Source: Escherichia coli (lineage in GTDB: Bacteria; Pseudomonadota; Gammaproteobacteria; Enterobacterales; Enterobacteriaceae). Taken from it: a stretch of DNA of 64,000 nt. Made by a program: the position numbers. The stretch lies in the NCBI RefSeq assembly GCF_022846255.1, contig NZ_AP025682.1, one strand, 5' to 3'. Shown here piece by piece: positions 41,101-44,100 of the stretch; positions within the stretch are counted from its first letter, which is position 1, and each line of letters opens with the position of its first letter.

Positions 41101-44100
41101 ACATTAACTTTATAATAAGTTTGCCAAAGGTAATTAACAGGACAGGGCTTATAATAATAGTTAGCTTACTGTGTATTAATTTGATGTAATGCATGATGCA
41201 GATACTGAGAAAGCATCTGCATCTTTCGGTGGTGTTATTTGACCAGCTCAGGTGTTACCTGACTCACCGCATTGGTGTAGTAAGGAGCCCCCCAGCCCGG
41301 TTCCGGCCAGAATGCACCATAGCCGTAATCCCACAAGTTATAGGTGGTATTAACCACTTCTCTCAAATGCCACACCTGGATGCCCTGCATATTCACTTCC
41401 AGGAAGTTATACGGGACTTTATTGATAAAGCCAGGTTGTTCACCCTGAATGGTACCGAGGATGGTAACAAAGTGATTACGATAGTTCACTGGATCAAGGA
41501 AGCCGCTTTGTCTGGCGAGCAGTCGGCCCTGATAGTTGGCTTCAATATCAGGCTTCGCATAGCTATCCAACGGTAATACAGCGATTTCTAACAACGTATC
41601 CGTTTTGCCATTGATAACGTTGATAACCTTCCCGCCAAAGCGCGCTTGTTGACCAACATATAACCCCGGCTGGTTATGAACAGCAACAAAACTTTTTTGA
41701 ATATCAGGTTGGTTATTGCCTTTGATATTTTGCGGAATTGAACTACATGCGGCAAGCAAAAATGAAAGGCTGAGGATGAGTGCACCTTTTGTCATGTTCA
41801 TGTTACTATCCTTATCAACAAATATTAAAACCATAATAGATATTTCTTTATAGTTTTCATCTGATTCTGAGGCGATATGCCTGATAGTAACGTAAACCTG
41901 TCTGATGTTTATATCTCTTCTGTTTAGTTGAGTTCAGTTAATTTTTGGGCGTGGCATGAGTATCCATTGTTCCATAATCTATATTCAGAGGTTTTTAATC
42001 TTTTCGTGTCTAATATTATTTATCTGATTAAGTATTGATTGTGTCTTTTGCGGAAGTGGTGTCGAGCTTATCGTTTCAATGTTATTAATAAGACTTACAA
42101 GTTGAGCCTCAACTTTGAGTAGTCTGCATTTGTATATGTGGTGTTCGTATGGCACGCATTAATTTGTTGGCGTTGTTGCGCTAAATCAAATTGTTCAGAG
42201 GTGTATCCATTCTCCAGAGAATGGGGCATTAATGGGGTGTTGTTCTTCCCGGTTATCACAAGGCCACTTCGGTGTGTCTGGCGTTTTAACATTATCGGTA
42301 TTTGTTGTGCAGTTATAAATATCACCGTTATATGTATTTATTACACCTGGGGTAAAGTCAATTGACATAACATTCCTTATTCATCATTTGTTTTATGCTA
42401 AGATTTTTAAATTGGATAATTAGAACAGGAATGGATTTTCTTCTACATACAGTAAATATAATGCGTCATATCTTCCTGATATAATTACCTTTGACTTCTC
42501 TTTTATTTCCATCTGGTAATATTTGAGTGCAAAAAAAGGCAATAATCATATCGCAAAAGAAAACGTTAACAACTATCGAAAATGCTCGTTTTAAAAAGGT
42601 ATGATGTTCTCTGATAGTGTGTGAAGTGATATTTTTGTGATGTTTTAGATATGTAATAATAAAATAGGTTAACGTATGTTGAAATTATTTATTGTGTAAA
42701 CCACTGATAAATCATAATCCAGTACATCTTTAAACTGCTGCACTGTATCGCTGATAACTAAGCAGCTCACTGATACACCATGCTGGACGCGATAATTGGA
42801 ATCTCACGCAGGGAGTACTGTGTAAATAGCAAAATCGCCTGATACGCTACGACTGTCAGGCCTACAAATAACATACAATTCATCGAATTATCATAACGTT
42901 GTAGGTCGGATAAAACGCGCCAGCGTCGCATCCGACATAAATAAAGCGCATTTTTCTAACAACCTGTGGGGGAATATAGCCGCTTTATTTCAGGCGATTA
43001 CCCGCCTCATCAACCACTTTCTCGCCATCTTCCTTGGTGAACGCGCCTTTTTGCGCATCTGGCAGAATTTCCAGCACGACTTCTGAAGGGCGGCACAGGC
43101 GAGTTCCCAGCGGCGTCACCACAATCGGGCGATTAATCAGAATCGGGTGCTGAAGCATAAAGTCGATTAACTGATCGTGAGTAAATTTATCTTCTGCAAG
43201 GCCCAGTTCCTCATACGGCTCGACGTTTTTACGTAGCAGCGCGCGTACGGTAATCCCCATATCGGCAATGAGTTTTACCAGCTCATCGCGCGTCGGTGGT
43301 GTTTCCAGATAATAGATAATGGTCGGTTCTGTACCGCTGTTGCGGATCATCTCCAGCGTATTACGTGACGTACCGCAGGCCGGGTTGTGATAAATGGTAA
43401 TGTTGCTCATATCAGTATCTCATTACGATGTGAAAGAGAGGTGTAGCGCCAGCGCCACCAGAGTTACAAACCAAAGCGGACAAGTCAAAAACACATATGG
43501 TTTAACGAATATGTAAGTGTAGAGAAAGGTGTAGGTGTGAATTAAGCGTTGGGCATTCATTTGAAAGGAGGTCTGAATCAGGACGTAAAAAAACCGACTT
43601 CGCGTCGGTTTTTTTACTGTTCAGCCCTGAGTTGGTGGCTCTGGCTGGAGTGAGATAGCCATCATCTAACGCATCAATGCTAATACCATACTGAAACTAT
43701 TGCAAGGACATGCTGGTTTTATAACCCGCAAGTACTGTATGATTATCCAGTTGGTTCTGAGACATTTTCACTCTGGCAATGCGCATAAACGCTTTCAAAG
43801 TCCTGGTCTGAAGTACGGGTGGTGCCGTTAACTGATGCTCTGGCCGGAGTGAGATAGTCGTCATCTAACAATGAGACATGCGCCGTGACAGGCAATGGAT
43901 GAGTAAGCGGATGCATTCTCACTCCATCGCATGGAGAAAACGGGTGATTGATAAAGCAATCATCGTTCTTGGGGCGTTAATTGCGCTGCTGGAACTGATC
44001 CGCTTTCTGCTTCAGCTTCTGAACTGATAGCGGAAACGTAGCTAAGGGCTAAGAGCACACTACTCTTAGCCCTTTAACATTTAACGCATTGTCACGAACT

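Follow-up and report, generated by a model that had tools for sequence, protein, structure and literature searches.

The interval described here lies within a 64,000-nucleotide stretch of Escherichia coli DNA (contig NZ_AP025682.1, assembly GCF_022846255.1; hereafter, the window) and occupies positions 41802-42984, that is, the gap between the start codon of slp and the stop codon of arsC. Both bordering genes are intact and are encoded on the minus strand. The left boundary is formed by slp (41235-41801), the first gene of the acid fitness island, whose open reading frame encodes an outer-membrane lipoprotein and is 100% identical to the slp gene annotated in reference locus L001. The right boundary is formed by arsC (42985-43410), an arsenate reductase gene identified by its open reading frame and Pfam ArsC domain and also annotated in L001. 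Gene names were taken from RefSeq record NZ_CP025401 (strain MS8345), which is 99.8% identical over the interval. The interval has a G+C content of 35.0%, whereas that of the window overall is 49.4%; near 42350-42800, the value drops to 29-32% when measured over 300 bp at a time. The longest start-to-stop frames comprise 76 codons (42095-42325, minus strand), 75 codons (42138-42365, plus strand) and 57 codons (42195-42368, minus strand); they overlap one another and lie on opposite strands or in differing phases. The longest stop-free stretch spans 80 codons, compared with 74.6 ± 16 in 500 shuffles of the interval, 31% of which match that length; thus, the interval is no more open than random DNA of the same composition. 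The first-pass annotation had described an ORF-poor, AT-rich gap with small overlapping frames in conflicting phases and had proposed either a decayed gene or a long regulatory region. Its coordinates were exact, its account of the frames is borne out, and both of its proposals hold, the interval containing a remnant of the gene yhiS as well as promoter and spacer DNA.

The identity of the decayed gene emerges from comparison with other genomes. A megablast search with the interval gave matches in 5418 of 5426 complete E. coli genomes, and many of these matches consist of two pieces approximately 2.1 kb apart, which indicates that those genomes have approximately 0.9 kb that is absent from the window. 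In strain ECONIH4 (locus L002), an intact 1224-nt gene encoding a 407-aa hypothetical protein is located between slp and arsC; this is intact yhiS. In a K-12-type genome (locus L003), yhiS is split by IS5. The window retains the 5' third of the gene at 41983-42368 on the minus strand, as established by alignment to intact alleles, by translation and by the RefSeq annotation. This remnant includes the ribosome-binding site, the start codon and the first ~128 codons of yhiS, and it is situated between arsC and slp on the slp strand, as yhiS is elsewhere. Over the aligned span (41983/41993-42371), it shares 88-93% DNA identity with the first ~380 nt of intact 1224-nt alleles, and after frame correction the protein identity reaches 88% over 127 aa. 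The same segment is annotated in RefSeq as pseudogene MS8345_RS20675 (window 41991-42368; 'frameshifted; incomplete; missing C-terminus'), and the same description is attached to the pseudogenes of ATCC 11775 (EAS44_RS01875) and ST131 (ACJIZ2_RS01105).

In addition to its truncation, the remnant carries three small lesions on the coding (minus) strand, each located by alignment. A +1 insertion at 42209 causes a frameshift, and an in-frame 3-bp deletion lies at 42178-42179; both are confined to the window and the type-strain lineage. The third lesion, a -1 frameshift in a homopolymer at 42114-42116 (TTT, compared with TTTT in intact alleles), is common to the window, ATCC 11775 and ST131, and the change of frame appears in all three translations. 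Translation of the remnant begins as the YhiS N-terminus and meets a stop 57 codons in; the sequence then continues in another frame and finally returns to the first. With ~codons 130-407 deleted, +1, -3 and -1 indels in the remainder and a stop after 57 codons, no intact 407-codon frame exists, and the element is therefore a pseudogene remnant. The ST131 remnant has the large deletion and the -1 frameshift and lacks the other two indels; because it is without the +1 insertion, its leftover ORF is 91 codons long, compared with 57 here.

The junction of the deletion falls at 41977-41986, where homology to L002 and to a further locus (L010) ends from both sides. Approximately 900-912 bp is missing, corresponding to ~codons 130-407 of yhiS plus ~65-70 bp beyond its stop codon, and window positions 41802-41981 align to the slp-upstream DNA on the far side of the junction. 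Only a few bases of possible microhomology can be seen there, and the exact base is ambiguous; the breakpoint is known to within ~10 bp only, because the nearest intact yhiS allele is ~92-93% identical. None of the 5426 genomes yielded an intact allele closely related to the B2 remnant, and every genome at least 95% identical has the deletion. A 211-bp query spanning the junction was covered over at least 80% of its length in 1053 of the 5426 genomes; approximately 1051 genomes (359 + 692) are at least 95% identical to it, and all of them carry the junction. Among the carriers are Seattle 1946, O25b:H4-ST131 and ATCC 11775, the type strain of E. coli; these strains belong to phylogroup B2. At least 80% of yhiS is kept in 3998 of the 5426 genomes.

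The remnant corresponds, in B2, to the yhiS::IS5 (insH11) pseudogene of K-12 and is the same entity as the B2 RefSeq pseudogenes. The K-12 pseudogene represents the same gene in the same position between arsC and slp and on the same strand, and it is likewise inactivated; however, it keeps both halves of yhiS around the insertion sequence (746 bp and 379 bp), whereas in the window the 3' two thirds are deleted, the 5' third is frameshifted and there is no IS5. The B2 RefSeq pseudogenes are 97.6-99.8% identical to the remnant without substantial difference, apart from the absence from ST131 of two of the three small indels. The first-pass annotation had stated that neither yhiS nor IS5 is recognizable in the interval. 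This is correct for IS5, since alignment of the interval to the K-12-type locus reveals no IS5 sequence and no transposase ORF is present. For yhiS the statement does not stand: ~128 codons are clearly identifiable. The alignment to the K-12 slp-arsC interval and to intact yhiS that it recommended shows a decayed gene, as it had suspected, in a recognizable yhiS context altered by a single ~900-bp deletion. No full-length homology to an intact gene was found on either strand, only the 5' third of yhiS surviving.

The spacer between the yhiS remnant and arsC contains relics of two further genes. In four other loci (L004-L006 and L010), two additional genes, a second ArsR/SmtB-family regulator and a permease, are located between arsC and yhiS; the intact permease of L010 corresponds to Pfam PF03773 (ArsP_1), and the intact regulator has HTH_20 and HTH_5 domains. 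This module is present over at least 80% of its length in 2220 of the 5426 genomes (~41%). In the window, neither gene is intact within the interval, where just 69 bp and 61 bp are left. The regulator relic (42774-42842, plus strand) consists of the last 22 codons and the stop codon (tblastn, 16/23 identities, E = 4e-7), and from this point to arsC, DNA homology of 73-77% persists. The permease relic (42700-42761, minus strand) corresponds to ~codons 203-220 of the ArsP-family protein (blastn, 72% over 61 bp, E = 1e-7; tblastn, 11/18 identities, E = 0.001). The same regulator relic occurs in the K-12-type and O157 loci, which implies that the loss of the module is older and wider than the yhiS deletion. 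The K-12 arsC-yhiS spacer, too, holds relics of the arsR-like/arsP-like module.

Downstream of arsC, a REP element occupies 42899-42939. It has 17-nt inverted arms that form a stable hairpin, and it matches GTAGGYCGGATAAGRCG with one mismatch at 42901-42917; it is the sole terminator-like site found in the scan, and it gives a weak match to the REP-derived Rfam family naRNA4 (27 bits against a threshold of 59.5). A second, degenerate REP-like palindrome (42837-42866) also forms a hairpin, and, compared with the other REP, its GGCCTAC end is in inverted orientation. The two elements show the features of REP and BIME sequences, namely, an imperfect palindrome of ~35 nt with a GTAGG-type end, a position 3' of a gene and an inverted-pair arrangement.

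Gene loss is also evident on the far side of arsC. Here arsR and arsB are absent from the window, ~1686 bp missing in comparison with L002 and the junction lying at 43471-43474. The arsR-arsB sequence is undetectable in 1048 genomes, a number close to the 1053 with the yhiS junction. A study of heavy-metal susceptibility in urinary E. coli reported that B2 isolates have lost arsR and arsB and hold arsC alone between gor and slp (AAC 2018, PMC5923176), and the window has exactly this gor-arsC-slp arrangement; the passages of the study on this region make no mention of the yhiS remnant or of the arsR-like and arsP-like relics. The loss of arsR-arsB beyond arsC and the two gene relics in the yhiS-arsC spacer had both escaped the first-pass annotation. 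The nearby gor-arsC spacer holds the sRNA AgrB.

The most AT-rich core of the interval (42284-42742, 28.4% G+C) covers the yhiS start and the DNA upstream of it and corresponds to the arsC/yhiS 'promoter island' of K-12. In K-12, arsC/yhiS and insH11/slp are among 78 such islands, and both are marked as H-NS-bound (Panyukov and Ozoline 2013, PMC3661553). The strong StpA/H-NS sites reported in a recent preprint include slp-dctR and yhiS (bioRxiv 10.64898/2026.02.10.705075). Island coordinates were transferred by way of the K-12-type locus L003, and their placement in the window is inferred. Of the insH11/slp island, only the slp-proximal end (41858-41981) survives, and ~516 bp has been deleted. 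While H-NS binding is listed for the K-12 islands, the counterpart in the window is known from homology and low G+C content; by analogy with K-12, H-NS/StpA probably coat this AT-rich core and keep it silent. A simple scan, different from the method of the island authors, identified seven promoter-like sites in the interval, compared with 5.6 ± 2.4 in composition-matched shuffles. The segment adjoining slp (41802-41977, minus strand) comprises 176 bp of slp promoter and 5' leader, is kept in all lineages and shares 92-95% identity with the K-12-type, O157 and other loci.

Based on these observations, it is very likely, with a probability of roughly 0.9, that the interval consists of non-coding DNA, a residue of stepwise gene loss at the arsenic-resistance edge of the acid fitness island, in an arrangement typical of phylogroup B2. 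Read along the minus strand from arsC, the interval holds the arsC 3' flank with its REP pair, followed by the divergent arsR-like and arsP-like relics, the very AT-rich yhiS upstream region and the first ~128 yhiS codons. The yhiS gene is cut by the ~900-bp deletion and carries a shared -1 frameshift together with the lineage-specific +1 insertion and 3-bp deletion, and the 176-bp slp promoter and leader region comes last. Under this explanation, function would be confined to the slp promoter and leader (41802-41977) and to the 3' end of arsC with its two REP elements, and the remainder would probably be silent DNA coated by H-NS/StpA, like its K-12 counterpart. Beyond the slp promoter and silenced spacer DNA, no sign of function is apparent in the interval.

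One alternative is that the deletion has a regulatory effect, such that control of slp-dctR, and hence of that end of the acid fitness island, would be altered in B2 strains by read-through from the yhiS promoter or by changed spreading of H-NS. As a result of the deletion, the yhiS promoter and the AT-rich, putatively H-NS-binding DNA preceding it lie on the slp strand no more than ~570 bp from the slp start codon. Moreover, no terminator-like site was found between yhiS and slp in the window, and none is predicted in the intact locus either; given the shared strand and the lack of a predicted terminator, read-through into slp-dctR is conceivable. Removal of most of the insH11/slp island and the action of both YdeO and H-NS/StpA at slp in K-12, where YdeO binds the slp promoter (PMC4222967), point in the same direction. 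However, the 176 bp next to slp is retained in every lineage, and the core promoter is therefore probably unchanged; in K-12, yhiS does not respond to YdeO, and the islands are reported to be transcriptionally silent. A search for an exact YdeO box (ATTTCA N9-21 TGAAAT) was uninformative, with none upstream of slp and the only one in the window lying at 22071-22097, shortly before an ORF at 22128-22856. We consider a regulatory effect of the deletion unlikely.

A related question is what the deletion removed. A search of 5.8 billion sequences returned 136 YhiS homologues, and all of the source names shown are E. coli or Shigella; similarly, a profile search of 1.84 billion representative proteins recovered one full-length YhiS cluster plus fragments. 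Neither Pfam nor NCBIfam assigned the intact protein to a family. A profile built from 19 alleles gave remote, weak matches to YhiS residues ~204-277 only, repeated within each matched protein. Seven of these remote matches were checked against Pfam, and all are pentapeptide-repeat proteins. A PDB sequence search with YhiS gave insignificant matches only (E of 0.08 or worse), two of the five being named pentapeptide-repeat proteins. This resemblance is one of motif, not function. An AlphaFold2 model from the 19-allele alignment was unusable (mean pLDDT 36). The repeat-like core at residues ~204-277 falls entirely within the part deleted from the window. The alleles of YhiS differ by up to 36% at the protein level, and yhiS has dS values of up to 0.27 with dN/dS of 0.27-0.64, compared with a dS of 0.02-0.05 and a dN near 0 for slp. 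With its species-restricted distribution, yhiS is unusually divergent and encodes a core that resembles pentapeptide repeats.

Inactivation of yhiS has occurred independently by IS5 insertion (K-12), by the 900-bp deletion (B2) and by other deletions, and the shorter 371-codon form found in O157 and S. dysenteriae is counted among these events. Since yhiS is restricted to E. coli and Shigella, has alleles far older than its flanks, contains a repeat-like core and has been inactivated repeatedly, it could be regarded as a conflict-type gene, and its deletion in B2 as an adaptive change that altered the H-NS/promoter architecture upstream of slp-dctR rather than as neutral decay. We regard this proposal as quite improbable; if it were true, the repeated loss of yhiS would matter.

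It might also be supposed that the 57-codon ORF (42195-42368, minus strand), which opens at the yhiS start codon and closes at the first stop brought into frame by the +1 insertion, is a new small-protein gene derived from the yhiS N-terminus. This ORF has an intact ATG, an AAGGAA ribosome-binding site directly upstream and its native upstream region. On the other hand, its end is fixed by a lineage-specific frameshift, and the corresponding ORF in ST131 ends with a different C-terminus; the two lengths (57 and 91 codons) show that length is not conserved between lineages. The remnants of the window and ST131 differ at ~3% of positions, indels included, and RefSeq calls the element a pseudogene, all of which makes a new gene very unlikely. 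The pattern of lesions is that of a dead gene gathering further damage rather than that of a conserved small protein, and the indel differences among B2 remnants and their unequal leftover ORFs are what neutral decay would be expected to give. Because the promoter of yhiS is intact, as are its ribosome-binding site and its start codon, a short transcript or peptide may be produced; nevertheless, we infer that the remnant yields no functional product.

Similarly, a long non-coding stretch beside stress genes, with AgrB encoded in a neighboring spacer, could suggest an undescribed small RNA or structured element. Rfam searches, however, gave no family in the interval when the whole window was scanned at the gathering threshold and nothing credible inside it when 40500-45500 was scanned at E values up to 1. 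The stable hairpins are the REP elements only, and the fold z-score is only -1.96. Conservation across eight divergent loci is uniform, at 0.87-0.98 in blocks of 30 bp, and no block stands out as constrained; within the remnant and its upstream region, no sub-block is better conserved than its surroundings. Promoter and terminator scans of the interval showed no enrichment over shuffles. The H-NS high-affinity motif TCGATAAATT has a single site with one mismatch in the interval (42877-42886), which is uninformative, and short direct repeats inside the interval are limited to two-copy, chance-level matches. A hidden RNA element is extremely unlikely. Finally, replacement of the yhiS region by unrelated DNA, for which the identity of ~91% to K-12-type DNA and the broken yhiS frame might be cited, is ruled out by the colinearity of the interval with the K-12-type locus throughout, except for the one deletion.

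Stepwise gene loss thus remains the preferred explanation of the interval, and the observation is an ordinary one, because approximately one fifth of the complete genomes share the arrangement and it is already annotated. RefSeq already lists the remnant as a pseudogene, and the presence of arsC alone between gor and slp in B2 strains has already been published. In practical terms, the yhiS junction and the arsR-arsB deletion together constitute a marker present in ~19% of complete E. coli genomes, including ST131, ST95-like, ATCC 11775 and ATCC 25922-like strains, and this marker records how the arsenic-resistance region, which borders the acid fitness island, has shrunk step by step.

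Beyond arsC, a second loss is found. Compared to the ECONIH4 locus (L002), which carries an intact yhiS, approximately 1686 bp are missing from the window at a junction at 43471-43474 (within the region 43411-43700). This deletion removed arsR and arsB, spared just 49 bp from the 3' terminus of arsB as a relic (43423-43471), and left arsC without its native promoter-proximal region. In the survey of complete E. coli genomes, 1048 of 5426 contain no arsR-arsB sequence, a number near that of genomes with the yhiS deletion junction (1053); the loss of arsR and arsB in phylogroup B2 is already described in a published study (PMC5923176).

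The spacer between arsC and dinQ also seems altered. Rfam identified a single Agr antisense RNA gene in 43474-43700, namely AgrB (43585-43669, 91.5 bits), and two distinct repeats of the K-12-type locus both align to window 43571-43685, with identities of 87% and approximately 95%. Because of this lone match and the doubly matched segment, the agrA/agrB pair seems to have been reduced to one copy beside dinQ in the window. In ST131, this spacer is shorter by another 200 bp or so. Identity to the K-12-type sequence is uneven along this part of the window: it is just approximately 92% over 41993-43471 (yhiS remnant, spacer and arsC), approximately 95% for arsC alone, approximately 96% on the dinQ-gor side, and approximately 99% for slp.

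At the yhiS deletion junction itself, a G+C-rich hairpin (41944-41975) directly abuts the breakpoint; its K-12-type form is GGGGCG...CGCCCC, and the junction-side arm is mutated in the window. Since no U-run follows the hairpin on either strand, it is no obvious terminator.

The acid fitness island appears to lie wholly or largely within the window, as judged for the upstream genes from Rfam matches and the ORF layout. Over-threshold matches were obtained for GadY (21771-21884), the ES205 sRNA (27664-27735) and the shuA/chuA 5' UTR thermoregulator (37407-37438). In the window, chuA and chuS adjoin dctR, whereas yhiD occupies that place in the ECONIH4 locus. The window's sole exact YdeO box, ATTTCA N15 TGAAAT (22071-22097), is located closely upstream of the ORF at 22128-22856, which from its position is likely gadW; a YdeO footprint has been reported at the gadW promoter (PMC4222967).

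The intact yhiS alleles (L002:2748-3971, L004-L006 and L010) are strongly divergent for one species, with dS up to 0.27 and dN/dS of 0.27-0.64, and all five are exactly 407 codons long; for the neighbouring slp, dS is 0.02-0.05 and dN approximately 0. In the protein alignment, the alleles look mosaic. Residues ~204-277 of YhiS resemble pentapeptide repeats, and the homologues found are confined to E. coli and Shigella. A shorter, 371-aa YhiS, present in O157:H7 (L007:2501-3616) and in some Shigella dysenteriae and E. coli (proteins P0045, P0046, P0053 and P0057), is a separate, independent truncation.

Between arsC and yhiS, four of the intact loci (L004, L005, L006 and L010) carry a divergent ArsR/SmtB regulator and an ArsP_1 (PF03773) permease. 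This module survives merely as a relic in K-12, O157 and the window; it is present in 2220 of the 5426 genomes, and plasmids carry more distant copies of it, 80-90% identical, at 365 sites.
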